Below are positions 1-20,660 of a DNA stretch of 64,000 nucleotides, in pieces. A program made the position numbers and the translations under genes. The stretch is from an uncultured Acidobacteriota bacterium (GTDB lineage Bacteria; Acidobacteriota; Blastocatellia; RBC074), in NCBI GenBank assembly GCA_963796275.1, contig CAWCKY010000003.1, positions 32,001 to 96,000 of the forward strand. Direction: 5' to 3'. The notes under the pieces were generated by a model. The model saw nothing but the letters and a program-made list of their open reading frames with translations, searched no databases and had not been told where the DNA came from. The stretch's first letter is position 1. Every line of letters starts with the position of its first letter.

Positions 1-102
1 CTGGATTTTTATTACAAGGGGTCGCGACAGCTCGCTGAAAGATCACATTGTCACGGCGATCATTTCCCTGAACATTGAATATAGACTATAGCGCGCGCTA
101 GA

Positions 103-1059
103 ATGACGCGCCATCCGCACAATTCCATGTTGGCCAAAAAAAATATGACACTCGCATCCATTTACAAATCCGTCAGACCTTCGATCGTCGCGTTCGTGTC
201 GAAGTTCGCTCCCGCTTATGACAAGACAGAACCGCCTCCGCTATTTCCGTCGATTATCGGTACTGGATTTATCGTGGATAGCCACGGCATCGTCGCAACA
301 AACTCACATGTTGTTCGTGCGATCGCCAATGTACCGAGACCATCGGATTTTCCTCCTGACAAATGGCCGGTTCACGCCATTCTTTTTCGCATCACCGAAG
401 CAGGCCAGCTCGAAATACCGCTTGAAGTGGCGGGTGTATCCCAGATCACCAAAATTAGTGCTGGAAAGGCATATTACGGGCCGAAAGAAGGACCGGACCT
501 TGGATTTGTCGTTTTGAAGGTGAAGGGCTTGGTGCCTTTGCAGATTGATGATGAGACCGAAGTCGAGGAGGGTATCGAAGTCGCTACTGCAGGTTACCCC
601 ATGGGCACGGATGCTCTAACAGCACCCGGTTGGTTGCATCAGCTCACTCCGACACTACAAAAGGGAATTGTTAGCGCCGTGCTCCCGTATCCATGCTCGC
701 GGCCGCACGGCTTCTCCATCAACATTATGACTCAGGGAGGCGCAAGTGGATCGCCAGTTTTTTCTTGCACGACAGGCCGGATCCTTGGCGTTCTCTATGC
801 AGGGCTCGACGATTTTGATGAGACATTGGATCAGAAAGATTTATACCGAGTGCCTACTGCAATCAGCTATGTCGTGCCTTCACATTACATTGCCCCAACT
901 CTCGAAAGTATGAAAGGCAATCCGGACTTTAAGATGCCAGCAGACGCAATTACCATCGACGAGATGCTGCAGCGAGGCACAATCATCAATACGTTGGAAG
1001 AGGGTCGAGAGTGGAAAGTATGGCAAGAAGCCAAAAAGCCCACCGATGAAGACCGCTAG
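103..1059 (+). CDS. Trypsin-like serine protease (S1 family), no PDZ domain or signal peptide; true start possibly 145
   Basis: GTGFIV, ATNSHVV (His), PDLGFV (Asp), AGYP and GASGSPVF (Ser) motifs. Confidence 0.9.
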   Translation: MTRHPHNSMLAKKNMTLASIYKSVRPSIVAFVSKFAPAYDKTEPPPLFPSIIGTGFIVDSHGIVATNSHVVRAIANVPRPSDFPPDKWPVHAILFRITEAGQLEIPLEVAGVSQITKISAGKAYYGPKEGPDLGFVVLKVKGLVPLQIDDETEVEEGIEVATAGYPMGTDALTAPGWLHQLTPTLQKGIVSAVLPYPCSRPHGFSINIMTQGGASGSPVFSCTTGRILGVLYAGLDDFDETLDQKDLYRVPTAISYVVPSHYIAPTLESMKGNPDFKMPADAITIDEMLQRGTIINTLEEGREWKVWQEAKKPTDEDR

Positions 1060-1071
1060 GGAAAGGGTCAA

Positions 1072-2007
1072 ATGTCTGTTCTTCAGAAAGTATTTCTACA
1101 CACACCAGCGCGCAGCCCGGCTGTTGTTCAAGACTACGAAAGACAACATCGTGAGGAAGGCGAACAACTTGACTTCAAGGCCATAGCCTGGGAGAAGGGC
1201 AAAAGTTTGGAGGCGGCAAAGGATGTGGCTGCTTTCGCTAACCATCTTGGTGGTGACATTATCATCGGCATTAACGACAAAGGAGACCGTGCCGATGGAT
1301 GGAACCCAATTCCGAACGCCGACATTCCCGCCACCATAAGAAACATTCGCGACTGGCTCATTAAACATATTCGCCCGCAAGAGGTTGCTGAAATAGTAGA
1401 CATAGAGCAGGTGGTAGCACCGCAGCCGGACTCTTCAGTGCTCGTAGTATCTATTCCACCCTTCCCCCAATTAGTCGGCATCGAGGACAGAGAGACAGAC
1501 AAGATCATCCTTCAATTTCCTATTCGCACCGGAAGGCGCATACGATGGCTTACTTTTGATGAGATTATGACCAGAACATCCACATCGACGCGAGGGACCT
1601 ATATCAAGCTCAAAGCATTGGCGGACAGCATTGGCCCTTACACTAGAATAAGTTTTACTAGTCCCGTTCTAGTTGTCGCCGGTGATGAACTGAAAGACCT
1701 ATTAAAGCAAGGCCGCATTCATTGCGAGATTGTTGAACTGACGCCCGATGTCATAAAAGTAACGATGAACGGCTCAGAAAACTCTTTACATGGACGACAA
1801 TGGCATCCTAATGGGACTGAGACCATGTCACACCCTGTGACCGTTGAGGCCGGTCATAAGCTAACGATTCCTCTTGAGTTCGTTAGAGCAGTCTGGAAAG
1901 ACCAAAAATCCATCTCGCAGATTGAACATTTGTCCATCGCCCTATCCGCTAACATTGTGTGGAATGGTGACTACTGGAGTTTTGTAACCGGCACACTCTC
2001 ACATTGA
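1072..2007 (+). CDS. Schlafen/AlbA_2 domain protein with unrecognised C-terminal domain
   Basis: EEGEQLDFK ... KDVAAFANHLGGDIIIGIND, the AlbA_2/Schlafen core signature. Confidence 0.85.
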   Translation: MSVLQKVFLHTPARSPAVVQDYERQHREEGEQLDFKAIAWEKGKSLEAAKDVAAFANHLGGDIIIGINDKGDRADGWNPIPNADIPATIRNIRDWLIKHIRPQEVAEIVDIEQVVAPQPDSSVLVVSIPPFPQLVGIEDRETDKIILQFPIRTGRRIRWLTFDEIMTRTSTSTRGTYIKLKALADSIGPYTRISFTSPVLVVAGDELKDLLKQGRIHCEIVELTPDVIKVTMNGSENSLHGRQWHPNGTETMSHPVTVEAGHKLTIPLEFVRAVWKDQKSISQIEHLSIALSANIVWNGDYWSFVTGTLSH

Positions 2008-2392
2008 TTGACGAGAAACACGGTCCAGTTGAGGTTCAATATAGGAAATTCCTGTTCAAGGTTCCAAATGGCCGAAAGTTGTGAGCGGGAAAAACTCCGG
2101 CGACAGTCCGAGTCGGCGCCGGTTTCATTTGCGCATCGTGCTCAGCTTGCCGCAGTGCGGCGCCGTTCAATCAAACCGTAAGAGTGAGCGCCCGTGAGTG
2201 GCAGGGATAGATGCGTATCCTTTCAGCCGAAAACTAATATCGTCCTCACTTTCTCCTTACGCCCTTTATTTTTCTTGAAAACAAAGCGGACAGCATCGCC
2301 GCGCATAATCTGATTGCTAACCGGCTTCGATGGATATTGGCCAAGCCTGCGCCTCGCAAACAACCGTTTTCAACAAGTGACAAGGAGGATCT

Positions 2393-2824
2393 ATGTCGGA
2401 AATAGATCGCGCTGAAAAACTGATCGTCGCATTGGGGCAACGAATCAGTGAGCAGAATGGAATACTCCAGATGATTGCGGAAAGTCTTCAAGGAGTTGAA
2501 TCACATCTGCGCCAGATTGCCATCTCATCAAACCCCGCTCCCAACTACCAGCGGCCTTTGAGCGAATATGCGGATTTTGACTGGCCCTCAATCGGCGCAA
2601 GCGTTCTCAATCGAGACGACGACGGTGTGACAGCCGTCGAATGGAACGGTCAGGTCTTCACGCGCCGGTCGCCCAACAATAAATTTGACGCCGCCGTATG
2701 GTTTTCGCGCCATCTTGGTTCGGATTCTGATGGCAATAAGCGGTATGCGCGGCTGATCACCTTCAGAGCCTTGAGCGATGCGGAGCCGATCGCCTCCAAG
2801 GCGAAGAAGGCGATCCGCACGTAA
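2393..2824 (+). CDS. DdrB-like single-stranded DNA binding/annealing protein
   Basis: YQRPLSEYADFDWPSIGA...G..FTRR...AAVWFSR...DG...YARLITFR is colinear with Deinococcus DdrB motifs as I recall them (YQFP...ADFDW..IGA...RR...AAI.YSR...Y..L..FR); AAGGAGG RBS. Confidence 0.72.
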   Translation: MSEIDRAEKLIVALGQRISEQNGILQMIAESLQGVESHLRQIAISSNPAPNYQRPLSEYADFDWPSIGASVLNRDDDGVTAVEWNGQVFTRRSPNNKFDAAVWFSRHLGSDSDGNKRYARLITFRALSDAEPIASKAKKAIRT

Positions 2825-2911
2825 TGTATTGGGGCTTTTGGGCGTTGGCCACAAATTGCGCGTGAATGTGATATATTGGAACTTAAAGCCAGCTTCAATT
2901 AAACATAAGTT

Positions 2912-3448
2912 ATGAATAATCTCACGTTAAAAGCCGGACAGGTGGCCGCCGCCCTAAACATTTCCACCAAGCGTTTACAGAACACAGTGGATGCTGGATA
3001 TCTGCGCCCGGCGAAGGCCGGTCGTGGACGCGGCAGCGAGCGGCGGTACAGTTTTGAGGATGTGGTGCGTATGCAGGCGTTAGAAATCCTGGTCAAATCT
3101 TACGGATTGGCAACGCCCCGCGCCGCGAGGATGCTCTCAGAGGTTTGGCCGAAGCGCTTTAATCCCCAGCGGCGTCTGCTTGTCATTCATCCCGAACCTG
3201 CCATACGCGGGGTCAAACTGGAGCCGATCAAACTTCCGCTCAGCGAGATAGCGGCGGCAGCCGAAACCCGCATTCAGCAAGTTCTGGTGGACTATAAGGA
3301 AAAGAAGCGCGGAAGGCCCGCCGGCTGGTCGGCTAAGTTCACCAAGACTTTGTTGCAGGTCTCCGATGCGTTGCAGGGCGCGAGCGACAAAGAAATTGAG
3401 GAGGAGATCGCCAAATATCGCCGGAAGCGGCGCGCGAGGAAAAAGTAG
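2912..3448 (+). CDS. MerR-type HTH protein, putative antitoxin/regulator
   Basis: N-terminal MerR HTH (AGQVAAALNISTKRLQN...GYLRP...RRYSFEDV); C-terminal SDKEIEEEIAKYRR; stop overlaps the PIN gene start. Confidence 0.75.
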   Translation: MNNLTLKAGQVAAALNISTKRLQNTVDAGYLRPAKAGRGRGSERRYSFEDVVRMQALEILVKSYGLATPRAARMLSEVWPKRFNPQRRLLVIHPEPAIRGVKLEPIKLPLSEIAAAAETRIQQVLVDYKEKKRGRPAGWSAKFTKTLLQVSDALQGASDKEIEEEIAKYRRKRRARKK

Positions 3449-3897
3449 TGGCGCGGCGTCGCCGGCTCGGGCGTGTAGTCGTTGACACATCTGTTGTAAT
3501 TCGCGCGGCGCGGGCATTCCGCCAGCAACCTCCGGAACCCGGCACACCCGAATTGCAGCTCGTGCTGGCCTGGCGTGATGATCCTGAGGTCTTCACTTGG
3601 CTCTACAGCCAAGAGATTCTGACCGAGTACCGTGAGATTTTGCGCCACCTCAAAGTCCCGCGCGATGCGGCGGGACGATTCATCAATTTGCTCGGCCAAG
3701 GCGGTGAGGAGATAACAGAACCTGCGACGGGAGAATTCTCGCCGGATCCGAAAGATGATCCTTTCTATCATTGCGCGCTCGGTGGCGACGCCGACTATAT
3801 CATCACCGACAACGTCCGAGACTTCCCACCAGTCCGAAACAGAAAACGCCCCGGTATAATTACACCCGCCGATGCGGTTGCGAAGCTTTGGTCTTAG
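3448..3897 (+). CDS. PIN-domain putative toxin (PIN_3-like)
   Basis: RVVVDTSV, EILTEYREIL, DPKDDPFYHCA, ADYIITDNVRDF acidic active-site motifs. Confidence 0.88.
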   Translation: MARRRRLGRVVVDTSVVIRAARAFRQQPPEPGTPELQLVLAWRDDPEVFTWLYSQEILTEYREILRHLKVPRDAAGRFINLLGQGGEEITEPATGEFSPDPKDDPFYHCALGGDADYIITDNVRDFPPVRNRKRPGIITPADAVAKLWS

Positions 3898-3956
3898 GCG
3901 CCATCGGAATAAGAACGGATATCTGATAATACGGTTCGGAATGGAGGCCAGCCAAG

Positions 3957-4295
3957 ATGTCCAACTACGGTCACGACCAACCCCCGTATGATAACGATGA
4001 TGACGAGCGGTTCTATGAGGAGACCGTCTACAACGAAGAGCACTATATAGAGCAGGAACAGGAGTTGATCAGGCAGTCAAATCTTGAACTCGAGCTTGAG
4101 AGACTTGAAGACGAAAATATACGAGAGATGCGGGAGGAAGGATTGCTTAGGCTGACACTGGTCAAGCCCGGCGAGAACAAGCCTGAAGACAATCAGCTGG
4201 AGCCTGCGAATTCTCTCGATGATTTGGCCGAAATGCCTTTTGAAAGCGATGGAGGGCGAGAATCCCAACTCGTTCTCGGCTTGATGTTGCATTAG
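3957..4295 (+). CDS. Small, highly acidic hypothetical protein
   Basis: 112-aa ORF with upstream GGAGG; very D/E-rich. Confidence 0.5.
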   Translation: MSNYGHDQPPYDNDDDERFYEETVYNEEHYIEQEQELIRQSNLELELERLEDENIREMREEGLLRLTLVKPGENKPEDNQLEPANSLDDLAEMPFESDGGRESQLVLGLMLH

Positions 4296-4731
4296 GTATA
4301 GATACCGAAATCTTTGATGTTGATACGAGCCGAATAAGAAAAAGCGCTTGCATCCGTGGGATAACTGCAAGCGCTTGAAATTTGGCGGCCACCTTCCTCA
4401 CCCTGGCAGCCCCCTGACACCGTTCAGTGGAGTTAACCACCTGGTATCTCGTTGCCCCACTTTGTCTATCGCAACGACGGTGCCAGAGAGTTCCACCTGG
4501 GGATGAACGCGAGAAGCCTAATAAAATCAGGCGTTCTGGTGTTCTTCGATATTTTCTCGTGTGGTCTCAACCGAGCATTCAAGCAATTCTTACACGATCC
4601 GCTGGGAAGTTTTTTCCTTACCGCAAACAAGAAGGGCCTACATGTTCGAAATCTGTGACTTCATGATCCGGATGCGCCAATCCTTGGGGCCACAGCGATG
4701 CCATTACATTCGCTAGGCCGCGGCCAGCCGA

Positions 4732-4758
4732 ACTGATCGAAAACGCGCCGAGTGCCAT
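4732..4758 (-). pseudogene. 5' remnant (MALGAFSIS) of a VOC/glyoxalase gene, cut at a GTT core
   Basis: ATG 33 bp after the attC site encodes MALGAFSIS, resembling the MxLGAFSISLAVKD start of a VOC subfamily; similarity stops at GTTCGGC. Confidence 0.45.
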
Positions 4759-4790
4759 GCTTTGCTTCTTTCCGTACGGTAGTGGTTAAA

Positions 4791-4858
4791 GCCGAACGGC
4801 AGACTTCACCTGCGCGCGGAGCAAAGCGAAGCGCGACAGGTGGAATCCATAGTTCGCT
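4791..4858 (-). other. Integron attC recombination site (68 bp)
   Basis: Minus strand AGCGAAC-TATGG-ATTCCACC-TGTCGCGCTTCGCTTTGCTCCGCGCGCA-GGTGAAG-TCTGCC-GTTCGGC: R'', 5-nt spacer, 8-nt L'' with extra C, second unpaired T, stem-loop, 7-nt L', 6-nt spacer, R'. Confidence 0.8.
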
Positions 4859-4875
4859 GGTATCAGCCCTTGCTG

Positions 4876-7800
4876 TCAGTACTTCATTTTATGGAGCTTG
4901 TTAATCGCACCAGGATAAAGCTTAAAATCCAGCGAGTTATCAATTCGGACGACCGCTGTCGTATGCAAATACTGGCTGCCTAGGCTACCAATGCCTTTTT
5001 CGTACCGACGCAGTCTGACGAGCACTAATAACTCTGCCCTTCGCTTCATCAGTACGTCTTTCAGGAAACCCGAACTGCAAACTAGTCGTTTGGCGCTAAT
5101 CGATTCTTCTTCGTCGTACGCAGAATTGCGGCCCCACGCCTCCGATCGCGCCGCTACTCGTCCTGTTGGATCGCCCCACGTTCGCCTAAAAGGGTCCAGC
5201 GGCTTCAGTGCGCCGATCTCGTTTATGGCCTTCGTGAAGTAAAGCCGCCGTACTGCAGCAGTCACGCCGAGTAGATCGGTTTCATCTAGTCCTGCCTCGA
5301 TGTGAGGCCAGACGACCCATGGCTCATAAGGCTCTTTCTCAGAGAGTGAGTATTCATCGCCATCGTCGCGTTCTTCGGCCCGCGGCAGCCACGCTCGAAA
5401 GGGGTCTTCTTGAGACAACTGAAGCGCCAATTTTTTAGCAAAGCGAGGAGGCGCCAAGGCTGACCAAATGTCAATCTCAATTCCATCAGCCGAGCGCCAG
5501 TCACCAGCGACTACAACTTCCTCTCCTATGGATGATTCGATATTCAAGAGAGATAGAAGCTTTGCCTTGTCACCGGTGAGGACGAGCCCTTTATCTCCTA
5601 TCTCATAGAGGTTAACTTGTGCGCCCACTGGTGGCCTATCGACTCCGTCTGCAAGCCACAGCCCGTTCCTTCTCGTGAGCGATTCGTGCCTCAGCCACTC
5701 GCGCCAGGGATCGTTGTCATCAAATGGACGCTGAACGACTGGATATTTTGCTAGGAACTCGCCCGCCACGAGGTAGAGCGCGTGCCATCCCAGTTGCTGC
5801 CCGTAGAGATGATACCGGTCGGTCATTTCTCTTAAGCGGTCTCGTTGACGGACAGCACGTCCGCCGCTTTCGTACATGCTCTTTACCTGCGGATCGTATT
5901 TTCGCACCCAGGCGGTTATGGCATCCTTTGTTTCCCACCTTGATCTGTCAAACATACCGCTCACCTTGGCGACATCATGTTTGTCGAAATCATAGTCCAG
6001 GTTGAAATCGAACCCTGGCTTCGGCATCGAGCCCGGGCGCTTCTTGTAAATTGAGTCGCGCTCGTACTGCTTCGTCTTTTTCATCGGGAAGGGCGAAGCG
6101 TTGACTCTCTTTAGCGCCTTGATGTCACCTTCCGACAGGACAATCCTACCGCCACTCACGCAGGCTAAGAGAGTACGCGCGGCGAAGTGGCGCATCAGTA
6201 CATGTGGCACATTCGTACCTAACGCGACGGTCTTCAGCGTATCGGCATACTTCGTTACATTCTGCGGATGATCGATTGCCACTCGGGCAAGCGCAATTAG
6301 CAGCCAAAGCCGCGCGTGCAGATAGTAAAAGGGCAGTTCCGGTGCTTGATACGGATGGGCGTCCGTGGAATGAAATCTTCCGATGAGCGCGTCGATCACT
6401 TCCCACTTACCAAGCCTTGCGAAGCATCGGATGCTGTGGGCCGCCCTCCAACGATGTGCAGCGGAAGGCGAGCCGAGCGTGCGCCACAAGAGGCCTGCCG
6501 TAATATCCGTTTCTCCGCCTTTCGGATAGAGACCGTCCCTCCATACGCCGTCAACTACTGTTGATGCCAACTTCGCAGAGTTGCTATTCAGCAATCGCTT
6601 GAGCGCGATTTGACCCTCGCCATGTTTGGCCTTCTCACAAATGATTGCCGTAAGACCCATCCAGGTTGATGCAGGCAAGTGTGAATCCGGTGACGCGAAA
6701 ATCGCGATCAATTCGAGTGCCAGTACTGGCACCGGGATCCCGGACAGTTCGGTAATATCCTTCAGTTTGGAACCGGAGAGATAGTCATGATTAACAAAGT
6801 CATTTGCGTGAATCTGAATAAGCGGCTCTGCGATATCGCGGAATACTTTTCGCAAAGCCGCTGAAGAGTCACTCCATTTCTCCTTGCACTCCCTCAACAC
6901 GCGCAGTTTTGTGTAGATATCGAGGATCTCAAGCCGAGAGATGATCTGGACATATTTCGGCCTTTCTTCATATTTGAGCTTTCCCCGAAATTTATCGAAA
7001 AACTCGTTCTTAAAGGCATAGACGTACTGCAAGTTATTCAATGCATCGATAGCCCGCGCCATTGACTCCTCGTCGGCCGGGTCCGTTTCATTACCAATCT
7101 TCTTCATGGCGCGCCGGGTTTCTTCTTCCTGGTCGTTTGCCGCCTCTGCGGAGCGGAGATATTGCGGGCCGCGATAGTTTCGGTTCTCACTCTCTTCGTT
7201 GCGCAGCTTCTCGAACTTCTGCGCGGCGATGGAGAGATAGGTCGTTAGCTCGGAGTCCTTGTCTAGTTCGCGCTCGGCAATTTTGCGGAGCGTTGCAAGA
7301 GTGCTAGGCATGAAAACGCCCGAGTGATTCTGTTCGAATTGCAAGATCAGCTCGGTCAATAGAGCCTTCGAATTCGGATATCGCTTTTCGGCGATTACTT
7401 CTGCAAGTTGTGCCGTACCGCAGGAGTACAGTTCTACAGGAGCCGATAGGCGAAGCAGCCCCAGAGCAATGGCCGGGTCGATCTTGTCCTGCTCAATGAG
7501 TGCCATGAGGTAAGGCAGCAACGTATAGTCCAGAGTACTCTTGTCGCGGTCATCCCAACGCCCTAGTTTCGCGAGCGACCTGCATCCTGAAGTCCTAGCC
7601 AATCCCCTTGCGAATTCCAGCCAGGGAAACTTATCTTGTTCATAGATGTTGAGTTCGCAAATGTTTGAAAGCGTGTGAAAGTCGCCTTCTTCAAGCTCGT
7701 CGCCCCGTAACTCCGCTGCATAGAGCAACAGTTCGCTAGTGAACTGGTAATCGCCTGAGCCTATAGCGTCCATCTGGTCAAGACCGAGGCGGAAGTAGGC

Positions 7801-10800
7801 GGCCGTCTCCTCGACACTTGCAGGCATGATCGCCCTGGACAACTCCGCGAATAGAGATGCCCGTCGACTGACTTCATCCTCGAGCTCAATAAGGGACTTC
7901 GCACTCAGCGCAATTTTCCCCGCCAGTTCCTGAAGGTCCAACCTTTTCGCGAGAATTGCGATGATCTTAACAAGCGTTGATACCGGTGCGATGCCTGCCT
8001 CGCTGACCTTCGCGACAAATACCTCAGTGGAAGAGCCTTTAAGATCGCTCCGCGCCCAGATAGCAAAAATCAACAACTGGCGGCCTAGCAGATCAAAAAA
8101 CAGGCTCCTTTCGTGACGGTCCGAGTAACGGTCCCGCTTCATTCTGAACTTTGCCCACAACTCAACCAACTCCAGGAATGGCTTGTCGCCCTTCCCGGCA
8201 CCAGAGGAGAGCATTTTCGTGAACGCCTGGGCCATCTCAAATAATGTCTCAAGCCGCTCATCGATAAAATGCTCCGCCTCCCTCTTAGTTTCATAGCGCA
8301 TGGGCTTCTTTTCGGCTGGCAATCCCTGGTGTGACTTGAATTCCTCCTCCAACTCTTTTTTGAGCGTCTTCCGGAAAGCCTCCCCTTTCGTACCCTTCGG
8401 AACGCGCGCACCGAAATCAACGAGTTCCTGTGGCAAAAGTGTATACTCAGCAATTGGTTGGCGCTCCACAGCAGCGCGAAGGGCCATATAGGCGATAAAA
8501 GGAAACACATCCTTAGTCGAAAAGTGATCCACGAAGTACCAGAGGCCCGGCCTTTCGTTGGAAATAGTTTCCGCGATTGCAAGCGCCTCTGCGCGCATTT
8601 TCATTGCGACCGCGACGGCGGTAGCTTTCAGCATGCCGTCTTGAATGGGATCCATTTCCCGGAGGAACCCCTCACTCTTTTCAATGGTTTTCTTCTTTTC
8701 GCAAGCTTTGGCAAGCTCTCGAATCATGCGTCGGCGCGCAGCGTTGTCGAGTTCCATGAAGGAGAGAGCGGCTGCGAGGATGCCGCGTTGCGATTTAAGC
8801 GAATCCAGAAAGCGGCGAATGTTGGCGGTCGGAACTGTTTCCATTCTCTCCGCTTGGTGCAGCAACGTGAAGATATGTTCAGCGACTTCGTATGCGTACC
8901 AATCCTTCCATCCTTTCATGAATTGCGCGGCATCTTGCCCTCGATCCTGGGCGACAAGGCATACGGGTATTGACGCGATGTCGAGCCTTTCCGGCCCGCT
9001 TCTGTCTCTGCGGTATTCATCGTCCTGCCGATAGAAGTGATGAATCCATTCATCGGCGTTTACAACATGCCGGTACGCGTCGCTTAAGTCGCCGGACAAG
9101 ACGCTTGCAATCGTAAGTCTTGCGTAGCGTGTTCCGGGCCATTGTGTACGCGTCTCGAATAGTCGTCTGGTCGCATCAATGTCGTGGGATGCTATAACCA
9201 GATCGGGATTGTCCAGCACATACTCCGTGCCACGCTGGTTAACAGCAGCGAGGGTTGATAGCTCCACCAGCAAATGGACAAGACGGTCGAAATCTTCCTT
9301 CCTGGCGGCATGAAGTACAGCGGCTTTGAGTCTTGCGTAGCGTATGTTCTGCTTGCCAACAGTGCTCGCGATCGCTGTTGGAAACCGCTCATCGAATGCC
9401 AACTTGAATAACAACTTCCCATCATTAAGCTTCTGAAGCAGGCCTGGAAGCGCGCTCGCCGCATATACCGATGTTCCTTGCTTTTTGAAGAGGTTCCTGG
9501 CGAGGGCGCGCAGAGTGTCTGCTTTGGCAGCGTAAACATCACGAACAACCGTTTCAGTGGGTTCATCGCGGAACATCAATCCATGTCTTGTCTGCTCTAG
9601 CAGAGGTGCCAAGTCCGTCGCGAAGCTTCTTACTGCGCTTAGGTCCATTCCGTGAGCATCTGCGTACTCATAAAGCGGAACGGGCGGCGGTAAGATCGAC
9701 AGACCGGCGAGAAACGCGTTGATTTCACGTTTCTTGTAGCCTCGTTTCAATGCTTCGCCGAGCGCCTTCTGAATGCGTTCCTTTAAGAGGTCGTCCAGTT
9801 TTATTACGTTATTGAGCTCCGCCGACTCAAGAAGGCCTCTGTCGCTCAGCGCAAGGTGTTCGAGTATTCGGGGGTTCCCTTCAGATCGTGAATAGGCGAC
9901 CTGAATTTGAGCATCGGTCACTTTCGGAATGCGGTCACGGAGATACTTCTCCGTTTCTGCGGGGCTGAAGGGATTTAGTTTGAATTCTTCACACGGAACG
10001 TCGCCTCTGGAGATGTCACGTCGGTAGGTTCGACAACTTACGATGAGCTGTACTCCGTCAACAGGGCCGCTATGGTGGAAGCTTTCGAGCAAAAGCCTCG
10101 GAAAAGTCGGCTCACCCTTGTCTTTTGCATGTTCGGCGGCGTTGTCTATAGCATCAATGAACAGCAGGAGTTGTTTGTCACCCGATCCTCTCTGCAGCGT
10201 GGCAACTGCCTGAGAGAGGCGGGCTCGGAAAGCTTTGACGAGTTCTTCAACGTTCTCATTGATTGGTAGGAGCGGATCGCACAAGCCATCGCACGCAAGG
10301 CTGTTAATGATGTGGATTAGGCCACGCTTCGGAAGATGCCGCGCATCTTCAGGCGCTCGGTAAGCGCCGCCGCCAAAGCAATCGAACAGAACTGTTTCGT
10401 GAGTCTCTCCCAGTATCATCGCGAGGCTTTGAAGAAAGACAGTTTTCCCAACGCCGCCATCGGCGTGAATCAGGAGCGGCTTGTCTAGTTTGGGAATTTT
10501 GCCGCCGAGGGCTGATAGCTGTTCGCGCTCAACGACATTGCCGACTTCAGGAAAGCTGGCCGGGCAAGGAAAGAGGTCATCGGGGCTTTGCAGTTCCAAG
10601 GCGTCGAGAACGTCTGTCCGCGTTATAACGTTTTGTCCTTCGCCTGCTAGGCCTGCCTTTTCCCGGAGCAACTGTCTCAAGTTGCCCAATCTGGCCCGCG
10701 CCATAGCGTCAGGAGCAACCGACCAATCGGCGAGAACGAGGGAAAGATGTTGCTTGTTTTGTCTCAAGCTACCAGCTAGGCCAGTGATCCTGACCTTCTG

Positions 10801-11349
10801 CGCGAACTGAGTGAGTTCCTTGCCCTTAATCCCACACGCGGACGCGAACTGAGTGGCTTGCCTTCTTGCGTCCGCTTTCAGCGGTTTTCCCACCGCCACA
10901 CCATCTATTGCTTCGTGGAATTCATGGGCGACGGGCCTGTTCGTTATCAGCTCAAAAGTGAGCTTTTTTTCTACATCTTTCGCCCCATACTTCCTCTTGA
11001 GGCTTCTGAATGCTGCCGCGAACTTGCGAATCGTCTTCCTGGCATCACTCACACGGTACGGAACTCTCTGCGAGCTTTTCGAGTATTTGACCTGGACAAT
11101 GACGACCGCGCCTGCATCTCTAAATGTCGGCCCCTTTCCGTAGTACAGAACAAGGTCAGCGATCTCAACTGTTTCCGCCGAAGCGCCTGCTTGGTCGGCA
11201 GGTGCGAGCCCTTCGACAGCAATTCCCACAAGTTCATCGGTTGGCATGACGAGCTGAAGCGCCTTGCGCGCCGCCCACGCCTCATGAAACTCGTGGCCGT
11301 CACGGGAAGCTCTTACCTTGTCTATTCGCGGACGAAGGGTTTTCATCAT
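4876..11349 (-). CDS. avs3a: AVAST type 3 (Avs3a-like) anti-phage STAND NTPase with N-terminal Cap4-like nuclease and C-terminal helical sensor
   Basis: VRASRDGHEFHEAWAARKAL, D...QVK nuclease motif, ITRTDVLDAL...DLFP, Walker A IHADGGVGKT, FDCFGGGAYR, Walker B IDAIDNA, NPR motif; about 2100 aa like SeAvs3. Confidence 0.85.
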   Translation of the reverse strand: MMKTLRPRIDKVRASRDGHEFHEAWAARKALQLVMPTDELVGIAVEGLAPADQAGASAETVEIADLVLYYGKGPTFRDAGAVVIVQVKYSKSSQRVPYRVSDARKTIRKFAAAFRSLKRKYGAKDVEKKLTFELITNRPVAHEFHEAIDGVAVGKPLKADARRQATQFASACGIKGKELTQFAQKVRITGLAGSLRQNKQHLSLVLADWSVAPDAMARARLGNLRQLLREKAGLAGEGQNVITRTDVLDALELQSPDDLFPCPASFPEVGNVVEREQLSALGGKIPKLDKPLLIHADGGVGKTVFLQSLAMILGETHETVLFDCFGGGAYRAPEDARHLPKRGLIHIINSLACDGLCDPLLPINENVEELVKAFRARLSQAVATLQRGSGDKQLLLFIDAIDNAAEHAKDKGEPTFPRLLLESFHHSGPVDGVQLIVSCRTYRRDISRGDVPCEEFKLNPFSPAETEKYLRDRIPKVTDAQIQVAYSRSEGNPRILEHLALSDRGLLESAELNNVIKLDDLLKERIQKALGEALKRGYKKREINAFLAGLSILPPPVPLYEYADAHGMDLSAVRSFATDLAPLLEQTRHGLMFRDEPTETVVRDVYAAKADTLRALARNLFKKQGTSVYAASALPGLLQKLNDGKLLFKLAFDERFPTAIASTVGKQNIRYARLKAAVLHAARKEDFDRLVHLLVELSTLAAVNQRGTEYVLDNPDLVIASHDIDATRRLFETRTQWPGTRYARLTIASVLSGDLSDAYRHVVNADEWIHHFYRQDDEYRRDRSGPERLDIASIPVCLVAQDRGQDAAQFMKGWKDWYAYEVAEHIFTLLHQAERMETVPTANIRRFLDSLKSQRGILAAALSFMELDNAARRRMIRELAKACEKKKTIEKSEGFLREMDPIQDGMLKATAVAVAMKMRAEALAIAETISNERPGLWYFVDHFSTKDVFPFIAYMALRAAVERQPIAEYTLLPQELVDFGARVPKGTKGEAFRKTLKKELEEEFKSHQGLPAEKKPMRYETKREAEHFIDERLETLFEMAQAFTKMLSSGAGKGDKPFLELVELWAKFRMKRDRYSDRHERSLFFDLLGRQLLIFAIWARSDLKGSSTEVFVAKVSEAGIAPVSTLVKIIAILAKRLDLQELAGKIALSAKSLIELEDEVSRRASLFAELSRAIMPASVEETAAYFRLGLDQMDAIGSGDYQFTSELLLYAAELRGDELEEGDFHTLSNICELNIYEQDKFPWLEFARGLARTSGCRSLAKLGRWDDRDKSTLDYTLLPYLMALIEQDKIDPAIALGLLRLSAPVELYSCGTAQLAEVIAEKRYPNSKALLTELILQFEQNHSGVFMPSTLATLRKIAERELDKDSELTTYLSIAAQKFEKLRNEESENRNYRGPQYLRSAEAANDQEEETRRAMKKIGNETDPADEESMARAIDALNNLQYVYAFKNEFFDKFRGKLKYEERPKYVQIISRLEILDIYTKLRVLRECKEKWSDSSAALRKVFRDIAEPLIQIHANDFVNHDYLSGSKLKDITELSGIPVPVLALELIAIFASPDSHLPASTWMGLTAIICEKAKHGEGQIALKRLLNSNSAKLASTVVDGVWRDGLYPKGGETDITAGLLWRTLGSPSAAHRWRAAHSIRCFARLGKWEVIDALIGRFHSTDAHPYQAPELPFYYLHARLWLLIALARVAIDHPQNVTKYADTLKTVALGTNVPHVLMRHFAARTLLACVSGGRIVLSEGDIKALKRVNASPFPMKKTKQYERDSIYKKRPGSMPKPGFDFNLDYDFDKHDVAKVSGMFDRSRWETKDAITAWVRKYDPQVKSMYESGGRAVRQRDRLREMTDRYHLYGQQLGWHALYLVAGEFLAKYPVVQRPFDDNDPWREWLRHESLTRRNGLWLADGVDRPPVGAQVNLYEIGDKGLVLTGDKAKLLSLLNIESSIGEEVVVAGDWRSADGIEIDIWSALAPPRFAKKLALQLSQEDPFRAWLPRAEERDDGDEYSLSEKEPYEPWVVWPHIEAGLDETDLLGVTAAVRRLYFTKAINEIGALKPLDPFRRTWGDPTGRVAARSEAWGRNSAYDEEESISAKRLVCSSGFLKDVLMKRRAELLVLVRLRRYEKGIGSLGSQYLHTTAVVRIDNSLDFKLYPGAINKLHKMKY

Positions 11350-11765
11350 CCTTCTTCAGTCTGATCGGATCCGTCGCAGTTGATCATCTACGGTATGCCG
11401 AAGCGATCGACGAGCATATCAATCGCGGGGCCCAGAGTCTTCTTGATCGGCATCACGACCTTACCGCCCTCGGTCAGCGTTAAAGATACGCTCGGCGTCG
11501 GTCGCGCTGTTGATCTGAAGAGTGAGCGAGAAGCCCTTTGGTTCCTCATAATGATCCGGTGCCGCGTCGGCGCCCATCAACACTTGGTCGCCGATTGTCA
11601 TGCTGCCGTGCATAACCTTGTCCGACCAGGCGGCCGGAACCTGATTCGACAGAGGCATCCCGGAGTAACGGAAGATCGCCCCGGGTTGGCTGCCGAGGCA
11701 CTGCTCATAGAAATTGATCGCTGCTTCGCATTCTCCCTTGAAACTCAGATACGGATTCACTGGAT
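11346..11765 (-). pseudogene. Degraded VOC/PhnB-family gene; stop overlaps the avs3a ATG
   Basis: VNPYLSFKGECEAAINFYEQCLG...KVMH...LMGAD...GFSLTL...GGKVVMP...MLVDRFGIP*MIN across frameshifts; start codon lost and TGG apparently changed to TAG. Confidence 0.8.
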
Positions 11766-11926
11766 GGTAAATATTTTTTCTACGATAGATTTCTGTTTTG
11801 CTATCAGCCCAGCCGAACGATGTGCGGTGGAACTCGGTCGGAGTCACCTCAATCACGCGCCACGAACTGGTTAATTCTAACGATCACTGCGCGGCTCCAA
11901 ACACCAAAAACGGCAAATTTATCCTT

Positions 11927-11962
11927 CAATGTTTCGCCATCCGGCAATGTTTCTCCATCCGG
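11927..11962. repeat. 18-bp tandem direct repeat
   Basis: CAATGTTTCGCCATCCGG followed directly by CAATGTTTCTCCATCCGG. Confidence 0.85.
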
Positions 11963-12069
11963 TCTCTTTTGTGAGTCATAGATTTTTGCTGTGAATAAAA
12001 AAATGAGCGTGGCTAGGCGAAGCGCAGGCACGCTCAAAACTAAATTAATTCGTAAAAGGAGAATAACAC

Positions 12070-13755
12070 ATGTCACGCAGAATCGAGAACACTCGTCGTT
12101 CAAATCACAGCATGTTCCTTCCGCAAAATTACGGATCGCCTTTCAACGACACAGCGGAGCATATCTCGGGTCTCGGCCTGGGACGGCTCGACTTCGAACG
12201 CGGCGCAGTCGTGGGAGAGGTGATTTACACCGTCGAGGGCGATTCGACGCCCACGAGCCAACAGGAGGAAGAAGCGCGCATCGCAACGCTTGCCTATGCG
12301 CTCAAGAAACTCGGTAATCCGGAGGATGCCGCAGAGTTCATGCGCTGCCTAAACGAAATCAGCAGAGAAGGTGACGCGCGCTACCGGCAAGTTGTGGCCT
12401 CCTACTACTACGGCGAGATCGCCGAGCGTGGCCTTGGCGTTGTCCTTAAAGAGATGGCGCTCATCGCCATGCACCTCGCCAGCCTCAATCCGGTTATGGA
12501 AGAAATGGGGAGCGACACCGAAATTGTCTATGCGTCGCATGGGGAATCGAAGCCGCGGTCGCTCTTCGATCTAGAAGTGGCTACAGTCAAACGGATGATC
12601 CGCGGTCGCCGAAAGAGCGCGCGATTTGTCCACGATGAGATGACAGAGTGGTTGAACGATCTGGAATCGAGCGGCGCAACCATCGATGAACTCGATGATG
12701 CATTCGCGCACGTCGAAGCGTTGGATCAATACGATGAGGGCGGCGCGATCATTCAGATGTCCGCGCACGAACGCACAGTCACCTGCGGACGCGTCGATCC
12801 CGAATTCTCGGTTGAAGACCTGCCAGAATGCGCTCGTTATCTTGCCTACGAACTTCGCCGCACCTACGCGAATGGGCTTGCAATCGAGAATATCGGGGAC
12901 GAGATCAACACGGAGCTCGAGATCATCTTTCCGATCAGTGTTAATCTCGATCTGCCCAAAGACAGCTTTCCGTCGAATCTGACGACGGGGCGCACCGAAC
13001 GGATCTCGATCTATCGCCGGCCGAGATTCATATCTCAGGCCAATCGCGAGCTTCAGCAATTTACCCGGCAGGCGCTCGAAGCCATCCTCAATGAATGCGA
13101 GCAAGATTTTCATATGACCGCGCTGCGCAATAATCGTTCATATCGCAACTTCTACACGAGGATTCGCCACGCGACCGATACCGAGACGATCAGCGAGTTG
13201 AAGAAGCAGGCATTTGATGCCCGTCAGAATGGCGAGATGTCAGTCAAACATTTCATCGCTCTCAATACGGCTGCGGATAATCAACGTGAACGGTTGTTGT
13301 CGATGCCGCTCTCAGCGCCTGCTTATAAGCTCATCGAGGAGATCGTCACCGCACTCGAGAGAAAGCTGGGGTATCTCGCCTGGGCGATGTACGGCGCCAA
13401 TCAACCCGCACATCAAATCCACATGCTTAATTCGAGTGAACAGACACGCGTTTGGGAGGTGATGACGGCTCGTAAGGCGGCGATTTTGCTCCCACGACTC
13501 TTTGCGAAGTTGCTCTCAACGTGGGGGCAGGCGCTCCCAGGCGACTGTTTTATCTTCCTGGCGGCGTTCAGTGAGTTCTTCGAACTGCCGCGACTGCGCA
13601 AAGCGTTAAGCGCCGTTCGGAACAAAAAGCGATTCTCTGTTCGGGAGGCCTCCTCGGCTCCGAGGCAGTCAGATCCAACACCTGGACACTCTGCGGTGAA
13701 AAGTGGCGCTGTCGCAAGATTGCGCACGCAGGCTGCGTCCTGCGTACAGCAATGA
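12070..13755 (+). CDS. Hypothetical protein (561 aa), probable ICE backbone gene
   Basis: Long ORF, AAGGAG RBS, directly upstream of ssb; no domain recognised. Confidence 0.75.
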   Translation: MSRRIENTRRSNHSMFLPQNYGSPFNDTAEHISGLGLGRLDFERGAVVGEVIYTVEGDSTPTSQQEEEARIATLAYALKKLGNPEDAAEFMRCLNEISREGDARYRQVVASYYYGEIAERGLGVVLKEMALIAMHLASLNPVMEEMGSDTEIVYASHGESKPRSLFDLEVATVKRMIRGRRKSARFVHDEMTEWLNDLESSGATIDELDDAFAHVEALDQYDEGGAIIQMSAHERTVTCGRVDPEFSVEDLPECARYLAYELRRTYANGLAIENIGDEINTELEIIFPISVNLDLPKDSFPSNLTTGRTERISIYRRPRFISQANRELQQFTRQALEAILNECEQDFHMTALRNNRSYRNFYTRIRHATDTETISELKKQAFDARQNGEMSVKHFIALNTAADNQRERLLSMPLSAPAYKLIEEIVTALERKLGYLAWAMYGANQPAHQIHMLNSSEQTRVWEVMTARKAAILLPRLFAKLLSTWGQALPGDCFIFLAAFSEFFELPRLRKALSAVRNKKRFSVREASSAPRQSDPTPGHSAVKSGAVARLRTQAASCVQQ

Positions 13756-13931
13756 TTAATCTCTTCAATGGCGCAGACCCGCCTCTGATGATTCCATCAG
13801 TTTCCACCATTCACTCAACTGCGTGATTCATAAATTGGAGCTGCGCGTAAGCCTGTGAGCGGGCGGGGCAAGCGCCTCGCCTCGCGCTCAACAATTTCAA
13901 TCTCAATCTTGATCTGAAAGGGGTATGAACA

Positions 13932-14423
13932 ATGTCTTTTAATAAGATTACCATCGTCGGGTATCTGGGGCGCGACCCGGAATTACGTTACACGCCGCAG
14001 GGAACGGCCGTTTGCAATATGTCTGTGGCGACGACCGAGAAACGCAGGAGCGCATCGGGCCAGGCCGAAGAGCACACGATTTGGTTCCGCATCACGGCCT
14101 GGGGGCGCCAGGCTGAGACGGCTGCCGAATACCTGGCTAAAGGGAGGCAGGTCTATATCGACGGGCGGTTGCGTCTCGAACAGTACACCGACCGTGAAGG
14201 CAATCTGCGCATCAGCCCAGAGGTCAATGCCACCGACATTCACTTTCTGGGTCAGAATGCCGGGTCTGTGGAGAAGGCCGAGGATATCCGCCAGGTCGAT
14301 GAAGAGACAGAGAACGGGGAGGCCCCAAAGCCCGCTACGTCCAGAAACGGTAAAAGGTCGACCTCGAAGCTTGCTTCAACCAAAGAGCCCGTCGGCATTG
14401 AGGCTGACGAAATTCCGTTCTAG
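13932..14423 (+). CDS. ssb: Single-stranded DNA-binding protein
   Basis: FNKITIVGYLGRDPELRYTPQG...YLAKGRQVYIDGRL; acidic tail DEIPF. Confidence 0.97.
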   Translation: MSFNKITIVGYLGRDPELRYTPQGTAVCNMSVATTEKRRSASGQAEEHTIWFRITAWGRQAETAAEYLAKGRQVYIDGRLRLEQYTDREGNLRISPEVNATDIHFLGQNAGSVEKAEDIRQVDEETENGEAPKPATSRNGKRSTSKLASTKEPVGIEADEIPF

Positions 14424-14491
14424 CGTGGGTACTTTGCTAAGTGTCCACTTATTCTCGCTGATATACGCAAAGTGTTATCAGGCAATGATGT

Positions 14492-14520
14492 AGCGCCGAG
14501 GAGACCTACTTCTCGGCGCT
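14492..14520 (+). terminator. Hairpin, probable terminator after ssb
   Basis: AGCGCCGAG / CTCGGCGCT stem, weak T tract. Confidence 0.5.
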
Positions 14521-14614
14521 TCCGGTTTATTTCTAAGAAAATGTGGTAGGGGATAATAACTATCTGCCCACTTTCCCATAAAGATGCTACTTTCCCGCAT
14601 GTTAGCTGGAAGGC

Positions 14615-16063
14615 TTGACCTCACGATTTAAACATGTGCGAGTGAAAGTGAACATCACGCAAAAAGTATCAACCCGTAGATTTTCTGTGATCAATATCGT
14701 TCTCGACAATGGAGAACGTCTTCCCTGTTTGGTGGACGCTGAAACCTGGGAACCTGTCCGCGTAGCGACCAGGTGGGCAGTTCGTTATCGGCGATATCAC
14801 GTACAATCCTCCACCCTTGCCAATAACCTTCGGATTCTCCGGCGTGTCTATGCTTGGGCTTCGGATGTGGGCCGGTTTGATCTCGATGATTTTCTGACCT
14901 CAGGTACTCGGCTCAACGCTCGTCAAATAGAATCCCTGGTTCATTATCTCCGCATCAAGGGAAGGACAGTAATTGCCGGAGTCATCACACCCAAAAATGA
15001 AGATCAACAACCGGAATCGATACTTGATGCAAATGAGTTCAATCACTGTCTCGATGTGGCTGGGGAGTTTTTCAAGTGGTCTCTCGACAGCGCCAACCGA
15101 GGCGGGGTTTCCAATTTCACCTTGGAACAATTGATGGCTGAGCGGGCCGCGCTGGAGAGAGCATTCCGATCACACCATATTCAGACACGAGCATCGGAGC
15201 GCATTCAACCTTTAGAAGAACATGAAATTGAGACTATCAGGCGTGTGATTGCTCCTAAACAAACTGACTCGGGTAGATGGGAATTCCCAGAGAAAATTTT
15301 CTCCACGGCCACGAGGCTCAGGAATTGGTTGATGTTTGAAACTGCTCTTGAGCTGGGTTTGCGCCGTGGAGAGTTGCTCAAACTGCGTCTTGATTGTTTG
15401 CCTCGAGGCAGTGATGACGGCATAAAAATCTTGAGGCACGCTGACGATCCGCACGATTCCAGAACTAAAGAGCCAGCCATGAAAACGACCGAAAGAGTAA
15501 TTCCATCTTCGCGCTCGCTACTCTTAGCCTTTCGCGCATATTTGACCATGCCTGCCCCAGAGGGTCGTGTCACAGGCAAAAGTCCGTATCTCTTCGTGAC
15601 TCAAACGGGCGCCCCTGTCTCAGAAGAGACCGCCAACGACATCATCGCCAAGATCGGGCGATACAGTGGAGTCGTTCTTTTATCTTGGCACCGCCTCCGT
15701 CATACCTGGGCTGAAAAATGCGCTGAAATTTATGCCGAGCAACCAAACGGCATGGACAAACTGATGTATCTCGGCGGATGGACCAATCCGCAATCACCCC
15801 GGCAATACATCAAACGTATTCTCGCCAGACAGGCAATTGAAACAATGCGAGCTGATTTCGATAATCTGATCCGCGATCTGGAAAATGAATTGGTGCTGGA
15901 ACGCGAGAAGAATAAAAAACTGGTCGCCAAAATCCAGATCATGGAAGCTAATGCTGGCAGGCTCGGCATTGATCCGGAAGAACTGCACAAGGTCATTCCC
16001 AAGCCGATTAGAACAGTCTCCAGAGCAGAATCATCTCACAAAAGATGGTTTGGCAAACGGTAG
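14615..16063 (+). CDS. Tyrosine recombinase with an extra C-terminal coiled-coil tail (true start probably a later GTG)
   Basis: GLRRGELL (R), K, WHRLRH (HxxR), GGW, PRQY (Y) catalytic set. Confidence 0.88.
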   Translation: MTSRFKHVRVKVNITQKVSTRRFSVINIVLDNGERLPCLVDAETWEPVRVATRWAVRYRRYHVQSSTLANNLRILRRVYAWASDVGRFDLDDFLTSGTRLNARQIESLVHYLRIKGRTVIAGVITPKNEDQQPESILDANEFNHCLDVAGEFFKWSLDSANRGGVSNFTLEQLMAERAALERAFRSHHIQTRASERIQPLEEHEIETIRRVIAPKQTDSGRWEFPEKIFSTATRLRNWLMFETALELGLRRGELLKLRLDCLPRGSDDGIKILRHADDPHDSRTKEPAMKTTERVIPSSRSLLLAFRAYLTMPAPEGRVTGKSPYLFVTQTGAPVSEETANDIIAKIGRYSGVVLLSWHRLRHTWAEKCAEIYAEQPNGMDKLMYLGGWTNPQSPRQYIKRILARQAIETMRADFDNLIRDLENELVLEREKNKKLVAKIQIMEANAGRLGIDPEELHKVIPKPIRTVSRAESSHKRWFGKR

Positions 16064-16072
16064 GTTAATGTC

Positions 16073-16558
16073 ATGGCCAAACGAAAGAGCACCCTGCTGG
16101 GATTGCAAAAGAGTGCACAGGCGAAAAGCCAAGCGGCTTTTGAACAGGCGAGCGAAGCCATCAGATCGCTCGGTGCACGAGGATTGCCGATCGACTTTCA
16201 GGCCGTCGCTAGGGAGGGGAATGTCTCAGTTGCGTTTCTATATAAGAATGACGACCTCAAAATGCTGATAGACGAACTTCGTGCAGTACAAAAAGTAAAC
16301 CGGTGTTTGTCCTCACTCGACTCTAGCAAGCTAAGCGGTTTGATGGTCGATCAATCGACGGAACTTCGGCGGTTGCGTGAAGAAAATGATGATCTACGGA
16401 AAGTCAATCAACAACTGAGGGAACAAAACCAGGAGTTGAAAGCTCAATCTTCTCTAGTCGCGGCCCTGGAGCGACAGATTTACAGATTGACCAAAGAGAA
16501 GAACCTTCTGATGAATAAGATTATGTTATTGAATGAAGGCCAGGCGAATGAGAGCTAG
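16073..16558 (+). CDS. Tn554 TnpC-like / DUF6262-type HTH-coiled-coil protein
   Basis: AIRSL...PIDFQAVAREGNVSVAFLYK...IDELR followed by a coiled coil; directly after the recombinase. Confidence 0.75.
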   Translation: MAKRKSTLLGLQKSAQAKSQAAFEQASEAIRSLGARGLPIDFQAVAREGNVSVAFLYKNDDLKMLIDELRAVQKVNRCLSSLDSSKLSGLMVDQSTELRRLREENDDLRKVNQQLREQNQELKAQSSLVAALERQIYRLTKEKNLLMNKIMLLNEGQANES

Positions 16559-16664
16559 ATCGAGTGTGGTGCATTGCAATTCTTTCCGATCCTTACGCGA
16601 AACCATCTTCAGCCGAACCAAAAGTTATTCTCCGATGCACTCATATAATCAGTCCGCTGTTTTC

Positions 16665-19304: not shown

Positions 19305-19648
19305 AGGCTTCCTCCCAAGGGGTCGATGAATCGGGTCAGAATTTCAGATATCTGCCGCCAATTATCTTCTTCAGCCACAAGCTGCTTCCGCCCGGCACGC
19401 GTAATCGAGTAATACTTCGCCCGCCGGTTGTTTTCCGACACGCCCCACTTGGATGATATCCACCCCATCTGCTCGAGGTGCAAAAGAGCGGGATACATCG
19501 TCCCTTGATTGAGCTGAAAGCGGTCGGCGCTGATCTGCTCAATGCGCCTGGCGATCCCATAGCCATGCAGCGGCCCGAGAGTCTCCAGGGTTTTGAGGAT
19601 CATTAGATTGAGAGTCCCGGGAAGCACCTGGCTCTTATTCTGTTCCAT
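19301..19648 (-). CDS. PadR-family transcriptional regulator (acidobacterial type)
   Basis: GTLNLMILKTL...HGYGIARRIEQ...GTMYPAL...W..SENNRRAKYYSIT. Confidence 0.95.
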   Translation of the reverse strand: MEQNKSQVLPGTLNLMILKTLETLGPLHGYGIARRIEQISADRFQLNQGTMYPALLHLEQMGWISSKWGVSENNRRAKYYSITRAGRKQLVAEEDNWRQISEILTRFIDPLGGSL

Positions 19649-19653
19649 TATTC

Positions 19654-19676
19654 CTCCTGTTGGTGAACAGCAGGAG
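19654..19676. promoter_or_regulatory. Palindromic putative PadR operator overlapping the padR RBS
   Basis: CTCCTGTTG-GTGAA-CAGCAGGAG inverted repeat. Confidence 0.6.
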
Positions 19677-20660
19677 AGTAAATCATATTCTGTCGGTAGT
19701 CAACACAAACGAGCGCGGTTCCCGTCGTAGCATGAAGGGAGTCAAAGTCCGGATTCAGACCGAAGTGAGCTCGTTCAGGAACGCTATATCGCCGGTCGTT
19801 GTGGAAATTGTTCTACGACATGGAGAGTTGGCTCAGTTAAATAGTATCCGGAGCCGCGGCTTGTAACCACCTGAAAATTGACACATTGGTGTTGGTGTTT
19901 GGTCTTATCTCGCAATGGTGGAATGAGTTGGGAAAGTGAACACATGGAGATTCCCGCAAAACCCTTTTAAGAGGGTGAGTCTTCGACCGTTCCCATGCTG
20001 AGGGGAGATCGTGCGCACGGTCTCCCTTCCGTGCTTCCATTACAGCCCAGTCAAGCCCTCTGTCGATCCACTCCCGATCACGCCTACTACTCATCTGCTC
20101 TTTTGGCTCGCGCTGAAACAACTAACCAATCTCAATCTCACCTCGTGGCGCAATGGAGTTGCAAACGTCAGAAACCGAAGGATCAGTTAATTTCAGTGTC
20201 GGGATATTGGATGCGCGTCTATCAACTATCATATTTACATTAATCACAGCGGTGAAAGTGGCGATTAATGCCTTAAAGACTTTTCAGCTCGTTTTTCCTG
20301 AGCGATTCGCGCTTGTCGGAATCGATGAGGAAATCAAGCAGTTAATGACTCAAGCCAATACCATTTTCAAAGCGTATGTGACAAGAATGGATTAAGCTGA
20401 CACGAGGTATCACTCGTTACAACGAATCACTCCATCTTCGCGACCCACAATCGGGAGGCTTACAAAGGAGTAATTCCTAAAGGGCGGCACGAAATCTGCG
20501 CGAGAGGCTCTGGGTTCACGAACATCATTCTTCTGCGTGTCGCTTTGTCGGGCGCTGGCGGCATTCGTGCCACTGCCAATGCAGACGTGTGAAAGCTGAG
20601 GCCGAGATAGAAGATAGGGCGGCGAGACAAAGGGCAAAATTTTGAGCGGACAGGATAGGA

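Follow-up and report, generated by a model that had tools for sequence, protein, structure and literature searches.

Attachment (attC) sites of sedentary chromosomal integrons, like those in attC clusters without an integron integrase (CALINs) and single attC sites without one (SALINs), have the architecture R''-L''-stem-L'-R', with one bulged base in L'' and spacers of 5 and 6 nucleotides (nt). Integron cassettes for phage defence have reportedly been found by Kieffer et al. and Getz et al. Avs3 (AVAST type III), a signal transduction ATPase with numerous domains (STAND NTPase), is triggered by the large terminase and acts through a nuclease effector. In the available text of Darracq et al. 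(10.1101/2024.07.02.601686), phage-defence cassettes have an anti-phage gene associated with an attC, integron defence systems are streamlined and comprise a short gene or two, and recombination is poor for long cassettes; in the available part of a further report, a capture assay failed to recover a 4-kb cassette (10.64898/2026.03.17.712381). SALINs, in which a lone attC stands just after a same-strand open reading frame (ORF) with no integrase nearby, and attC x attG insertion, which might account for a cassette and its attC lying outside an integron, are both covered by the available text of Loot et al. (10.1101/2022.09.11.507474). The subject of the present analysis is an intact avs3a gene followed by an attC site inside an integrative and conjugative element (ICE), located in a 64-kb window of DNA from an uncultured Acidobacteriota bacterium (G000:C3:32001-96000; positions below are those of this window unless a contig or locus is named). 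Since SALINs and attG insertion have been described, the kind of locus is already known; the size, the NLR-type (nucleotide-binding, leucine-rich repeat) cargo and the ICE location are new here. A literature search of main texts found no description of Avs as an integron cassette.

The minus-strand segment 11881-4791, of about 7.08 kb, is quite probably the relic of an integron cassette array in the variable slot of a tRNA-Arg-integrated ICE. The relic would comprise an R'-type core with its leader, a decayed VOC gene, the intact avs3a overlapping the VOC stop, and one attC followed by a short ORF. With about five times the usual cassette size, the unit looks like a piece of a cassette array. 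It differs from the cassettes of chromosomal integrons in this length, in carrying two ORFs (one decayed), in its minority GAAC/GTTC R boxes, in an R'' that is mismatched to the first bases of the unit, and in its position in an ICE slot with extra DNA on both sides. The avs3a gene alone takes up 6.5 kb, unlike the short genes of the defence cassettes covered by the available text of Darracq et al. (10.1101/2024.07.02.601686).

The 68-bp site of attC architecture that the earlier note had placed 17 bp past the avs3a stop was recovered with all of its listed parts. Its 5' half consists of R'' AGCGAAC (4858-4852), the 5-nt spacer TATGG and L'' ATTCCACC with an extra C, and its 3' half of L' GGTGAAG, the 6-nt spacer TCTGCC and R' GTTCGGC (4797-4791). 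The L box pairs as ATT(C)CACC/GGTGAA with the C bulged. The minimum free energy fold of the bottom strand (-15.8 kcal/mol) contains the R box, an unpaired spacer, the bulged L box and the stem; the fold that the note had proposed as a check thus yields the hairpin at a modest z of -2.1, with 6 of 200 shuffles equally stable. In a recombination reaction, an integron integrase would cut the site in this folded bottom-strand form, with the crossover expected between G4797 and T4796.

Because Rfam has no attC family, covariance models were built from real attC sites; with Rfam itself at gathering thresholds, the whole window returned tRNA-Arg alone and no match at the attC site. The first model (R1) was made from six host chromosomal attCs and, with filters off on both strands, gave 4858-4791 as the top match of the window at 14.0 bits (E 0.09). 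The second (R2) was made from 85 attC matches obtained by searching 33 loci (the host array and relatives), the candidate being left out. With R2, the covariance search proposed in the earlier note produced a match (IntegronFinder's own model aside): 4858-4791 scored 26.4 bits (E about 2e-4) over model positions 1-89, the full length, on the minus strand only, while the second-best match in the window reached 12.6 bits. In about 395 kb searched with filters off for background scores, 17 bits or more were attained only by training attCs, their reverse-strand echoes (17.3 and 29.2 bits), the candidate and attC-like sites at the L101 and L105 avs3 loci discussed below, and all other sequence stayed at or below 15.4 bits. 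Default Infernal filters overlooked the candidate, so a default-filter scan of all 70 avs3-homologue loci counts as a weak negative; 16 of the 70 were searched with filters off. A rule-based attC scanner was dropped, having recovered 24 of 85 true sites and 1290 genome matches while the candidate failed.

Could the hairpin instead be a chance imperfect palindrome or the terminator of avs3a? It is a single site. Its R boxes AGCGAAC/GTTCGGC retain AAC/GTT, only five of their seven positions pair, and three letters (R'' positions 2 and 4, R' position 4) differ from the RYYYAAC/GTTRRRY consensus; the modest fold z and the R1 result taken alone point the same way. Two of these minority letters are also seen in true attCs of the clade (C at R' position 4 in 8 of 83, G at R'' position 4 in 10 of 83), and a bulged C in the L box occurs in 29 of 84. 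The L box TTCCACC/GGTGAA is also present in attCs of locus L046, from the genus of the host, and the R box GCCGAAC/GTTCGGC in L048; both spacers and the L box agree with the clade consensus. The ends of the R2 match coincide with the predicted R'' and R', and its score was put at twice the background maximum over the roughly 395 kb. A promoter and terminator scan of 4200-12200 gave nothing above shuffles, with no terminator call and no T-run at the site, and the neighbouring leader appears to be of cassette origin. A hairpin unrelated to integrons is therefore held to be extremely unlikely and, judged from its sequence, 4858-4791 is a genuine attC.

The gene in front of the site bears out the earlier description of an anti-phage NLR-like gene. 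PADLOC Avs3a (PDLC02167) matches residues 11-842 with 699 bits (E 2.8e-210), and Pfam NACHT matches residues 293-473 (E 3.3e-8); the protein also has a Walker A motif (GGVGKT). The likeness to Avs3/AVAST type III thus covers the N-terminal 840 residues, whereas the C-terminal 1300 residues lie outside the best-scoring stretch of the profile. A D...QVK motif can be seen in the translation, and the N-terminal region is a candidate nuclease effector. As a member of its family, Avs3a would presumably act as a STAND sensor of a phage protein, oligomerise and switch on an N-terminal nuclease. Homology with the copy in genome G029 puts the native start at the second ATG (11346-11344), a codon that shares 1 nt with the VOC stop. 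Full-length homologues occur in 70 loci from many phyla. The base composition of window positions 1-20000 shows no anomaly.

Upstream of avs3a, the VOC/PhnB-like gene is decayed relative to its intact homologue in G029: the ATG is gone, one frameshift is present and a TGG has become the stop TAG, and tblastn with the intact G029 protein finds two frames and an in-frame stop in the window. In the related genome G030, the counterpart of this gene's leader comes straight after an attC. Over 111 nt, window 11886-11776 and positions 3974-4084 of the G030 locus L025 share 84% identity; the L025 stretch starts inside the final 18 nt of a canonical attC (L025 3910-3991; 51.5 bits with R2, whose training set contained that site) and then runs unbroken. 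Window GTTAGAA (11881-11875) aligns with the R' of this canonical attC, and the remainder of the preceding attC is undetectable in the window; a MAFFT alignment gives ATTAACC (11875-11869) as an alternative register of the core.

These comparisons bear on the model of the earlier note, in which a single 7.02-kb cassette (decayed VOC, avs3a and attC) begins at G|TTCGGCTGG (11818), ends in R' (4797) and was inserted by an IntI acting in trans at a secondary GTT site of the ICE. Its appeal lies in the complementarity of TTCGGCTGG to CCAGC-GAA of R'' except at one base, and in three copies of GTTCGGCT on one strand within 7.1 kb, against 436 per 9.46 Mb on both strands. Insertion of an attC at genomic sites is moreover documented in the available text of Loot et al. 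(10.1101/2022.09.11.507474). The sequence GTTCGGCTGG that was taken as the cassette end is indeed present at 11818-11809, but it sits at least 60 nt inside the conserved leader: the DNA of G030 is contiguous across 11818, its counterpart reads CCTTCGGCTTGG with no GTT, and the cassette start there lies at least 60 nt upstream, at the attC. The GGCTGATAGC part forms the end of a GNAT gene in G029. By the G030 and G029 comparisons, 11818 is not a junction.

The second core that the note had assigned to GTTCGGCT at 4733-4726 (minus strand) fares similarly. The octamer is there, but with 436 copies in the genome, six of them in the window, and no attC-like fold upstream of it or of the other GTT core (4726-4797 and 11812-11890 were folded). 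Around the GTTCGGCTGG copies, 11821-11809 and 4737-4724 agree over 13 of 14 nt, a likeness that also arose in 23 of 300 shuffles and is locally non-significant. What the note called a '9-codon VOC gene start' after the attC proved to be a 46-codon ORF, starting at ATG 4758 and containing GTTCGGCT. Neither the host genome nor the fetched loci yielded a homologue of it; this ORF may be the truncated start of the next cassette.

The locus lies inside an ICE, as the note had stated, and the window has genes for a relaxase, a coupling protein, a VirB4-like ATPase, a lytic transglycosylase and an integrase abutting tRNA-Arg; no attachment direct repeat of the tRNA-Arg end of at least 14 nt was found. 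Collinearity with a sister ICE in the same genome (G000:C4:1503129-1607132) extends from 25 kb outside the left edge of the window as far as position 44190, with 65-87% identity block by block; the sister has different cargo. Backbone homology between the two ends at 11950 and resumes at 4241. These breakpoints define the cargo slot and do not lie at GTT cores, and the empty site joining 11818 to 4797 that the note had proposed to look for in sister elements was not what the C4 element displayed. In the sister, the slot holds a 1.05-kb segment including a PIN-domain gene (PF01850). Between backbone and cassette, the window has 68 nt on the left (11949-11882) and 549 nt on the right (4790-4242, including a multi-copy RNA-like element). 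Because of this extra non-backbone DNA on both sides, the arrangement is not the clean product expected of attC x genome-site insertion, for which the order backbone-G|TT-cassette-attC-G|WT-backbone is expected from the available text of Loot et al. (10.1101/2022.09.11.507474), whereas the flanks in the window are not ICE backbone. A clean insertion at a secondary GTT site thus finds no support in the ICE comparison, and the one-cassette model as a whole is very unlikely.

The host does possess an integron, on C6, and related attCs, as the note had suggested looking for, with the integrase gene decayed. The chromosomal integron (G000:C6:1951126-1967261, locus L010) has a GTTAGGC attI-like core beside an intI remnant, followed by an array of at least 15 attCs (GCCTAAC...GTTAGGC), each about 90 nt long, that spans 1951969 to about 1967261; its cassettes, read from translations, include a VOC/glyoxalase and a RibD-C/DHFR-like gene. 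Sites of the same family lie far from the array at C1:1006857, C7:672384 and C6:60788, and the family is present in 42 of 61 related genomes searched, a set that includes the unpublished genome G004, on which none of the conclusions depends. In the host genome, nothing reaches the cut-off of TIGR02249, and the integron-type pieces on C6 are in different frames with stops. Compared with the intact IntI of G034 (454 bits), the host gene has frameshifts and in-frame stops and lacks its N-terminus. By its reading frame, the host intI, the sole one in the assembly, is a pseudogene, and an intact IntI was found in one of five relatives checked. Within the window, TIGR02249 touches the ICE integrase only (46057-46839), far under the cut-off, in line with the absence of an integron integrase reported earlier. 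With the only intI of the assembly decayed, attC cutting could not happen in this host, recombination in the present host is not expected, and the earlier proposal of a host IntI acting in trans finds no working enzyme today. Excision or copying of the unit would be possible only in an IntI-positive host reached through ICE transfer.

Several observations weigh against a cassette-array relic. None of the 14 close avs3 loci has an attC within 3 kb (L057-L063, L065, L066, L070, L072 and L106, with 64-78% amino acid identity, and L022 and L026, with 77-80% nucleotide identity), so that the attC link is unique to the window locus in its subclade and could be secondary. Homology to the G029 avs3 copy ends 13 nt past the stop, just before the attC. 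In a textbook cassette, R'' would be complementary to the first bases, whereas AGCGAA here does not match the inferred start TTAGAA in this way. No second significant attC, attI or intI is present in the 64-kb window. Lastly, the E-values of R2 are rough, owing to a shortened calibration, and the model is clade-specific.

The first two of these points favour a different history, in which the attC, although real, was that of the VOC cassette, and a bare avs3a that was never a cassette inserted between the VOC stop and the VOC attC. In keeping with this, the G029 copy shares only the ORF and those 13 nt and appears, from sequence reading rather than a family search, to lie inside a split TPR-like gene with minimal flanks. 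Homology to the G034 copy ends at the stop, and the DNA downstream of the G034 and G029 copies has no significant likeness to the attC region of the window. Such an insertion would, however, need two near-exact junctions, for which no mechanism is known. Moreover, since R'' AGCGAAC does not pair with TTAGAA at the start of the VOC cassette, the attC probably did not originate with that cassette, as far as box complementarity indicates. The VOC homologues in G029 and G021 have no attC directly after them and hence offer no comparison. The insertion of a bare avs3a is accordingly considered unlikely.

Under the preferred reading of an array relic, VOC and avs3a are most likely two neighbouring cassettes that became fused after loss of the VOC attC and of the 5' untranslated region of avs3a; alternatively, avs3a may have landed between VOC and the VOC attC. 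The array fragment would have reached the ICE together with bits of its neighbours and not as a single clean IntI insertion. The 68 nt between backbone and R' core, in which R2 found no match at E<=10, may be the decayed 3' half of the preceding attC (CAGTGATC / GTTAGA / ATTAACC register). No second copy of the attC and its flanks (4617-4866) or of 11884-11950 was found in the host genome or the fetched loci. The sister ICE locus of the same genome gave no attC match, nor did any of 11 sister variable regions in related elements (76.4 kb). Among sequencing runs listed as containing the sampled words there was no RNA run; one soil-metagenome run contained 12% of the words, and none of its nine small contigs spans a junction, so the run is uninformative on excision and empty sites.

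Two other avs3 loci indicate that genes of this type can be very large cassettes. In L101, a metagenome-assembled genome (MAG) record of Aminicenantes, attCs lie on both sides of avs3 (2986-9459), one at 2860-2948 (22.5 bits) and the other at 9546-9604 (27.1 bits). The downstream R'' ACATAAC and the upstream R' GTTATGT are exactly complementary (ACATAA against TTATGT), which gives a cassette of 6656 nt; a DUF4145 cassette lies upstream, and about 1 kb upstream is an IntI C-terminal fragment (approximately 1629-1964). L105, a MAG record of Desulfobulbaceae, carries the same gene with 89% nucleotide identity to L101 in a cassette of about 6.9 kb (2666-9670); the upstream attC has the same R' as in L101, and the downstream ACATAAC...GTTAACA hairpin was seen by eye only and unscored by R2. 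From their sequence organisation, the avs3 genes of both loci are textbook cassettes. As in the window, a full-length Avs3 homologue is followed by a same-strand attC; unlike the window, L101 and L105 have an attC on both sides, an R'' exactly complementary to the upstream R' and a single gene. Their proteins are about 47% identical to Avs3a of the window, and their attCs are unlike its attC in sequence. Overall, the earlier note was right about the attC and about a very large defence cassette, and wrong about the boundaries and the route of insertion.

A broader proposal can be put forward only tentatively: Avs3-type NLR genes may move across phyla as integron cassettes of 6.6-7 kb, several times larger than has been considered workable, with ICEs like the present one carrying them between attC-rich soil bacteria. 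The cross-phylum part is suggested by the 89% identical L101 and L105 cassettes in MAGs of two phyla. If true, the cassette size limit would be soft, and integrons and ICEs would form a joint route for spreading full-size immune receptors. A 2157-residue Avs3 beside a genuine attC, together with the L101 and L105 cassettes (about 6.66 and 6.9 kb), runs against the picture of miniaturised defence, and the three loci are concrete substrates with which the size limit of IntI recombination could be measured. The locus would also place cassette-array DNA on a conjugative element in Acidobacteriota-type soil bacteria, in which attCs are common and intact integrases are rare. The coordinates of the features are collected in Table 1.

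Table 1. Features of the avs3a locus and its ICE slot (window positions).
Feature	Position	Strand	Basis or remark
Variable ICE cargo slot	4242-11949	.	Sister ICE comparison
Stretch between ICE backbone and R' core	11949-11882	-	68 nt, unique in genome and fetched loci
Putative cassette leader	11881-11761	-	R'-type core GTTAGAA 11881-11875; includes GTTCGGCTGG 11818-11809
Decayed VOC/PhnB-like gene	11760-11346	-	Pfam PF06983 and PF00903 on longest frame
avs3a ORF, intact, 2157 aa, STAND/NACHT NLR-like	11349-4876	-	ORF and translation
attC site	4858-4791	-	68 nt, first base 17 nt past avs3a stop, same strand
Post-attC sequence	4790-4618	-	32-nt spacer, then 46-codon ORF (4758-4618)

Some further features of the locus and its surroundings were observed. 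The Acidobacteriota homologue of avs3a in L022 (G029:C1, 6798-16354) is cut by an insert of about 3 kb with a gene for an IS1-family transposase. At 11927-11962 on the minus strand, exactly at the junction of ICE backbone and cargo, lies an 18-nt tandem repeat, CCGGATGGNGAAACATTG x2; at this place, a single copy-like stretch is seen in the sister ICE before the two sequences diverge. At the other end of the slot, 4332-4500 on the plus strand, continuing to about 4616, is a conserved element that resembles a structured RNA and is present in multiple copies. Most relatives have copies with approximately 75-82% identity to it, several in each genome, and an alignment of 11 copies gave 29 predicted pairs, four of them with compensatory changes, including a long-range GTGGG/CCCAC pairing. 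Rfam offered only a weak Hrs10 match for it (24.7 bits against a gathering score of 108).

Elsewhere in the ICE, 14615-16558 on the plus strand contains a second tyrosine recombinase of 482 amino acids, without a match to the integron-integrase family TIGR02249, followed by a DUF6262 gene. The stretch 103-3897, left of the slot, appears to be other defence- or addiction-like cargo, with a trypsin-like peptidase beside a Schlafen/AlbA_2 protein and a DdrB-like protein, and a MerR-type helix-turn-helix gene and a PIN_3 gene that share the boundary 3448.

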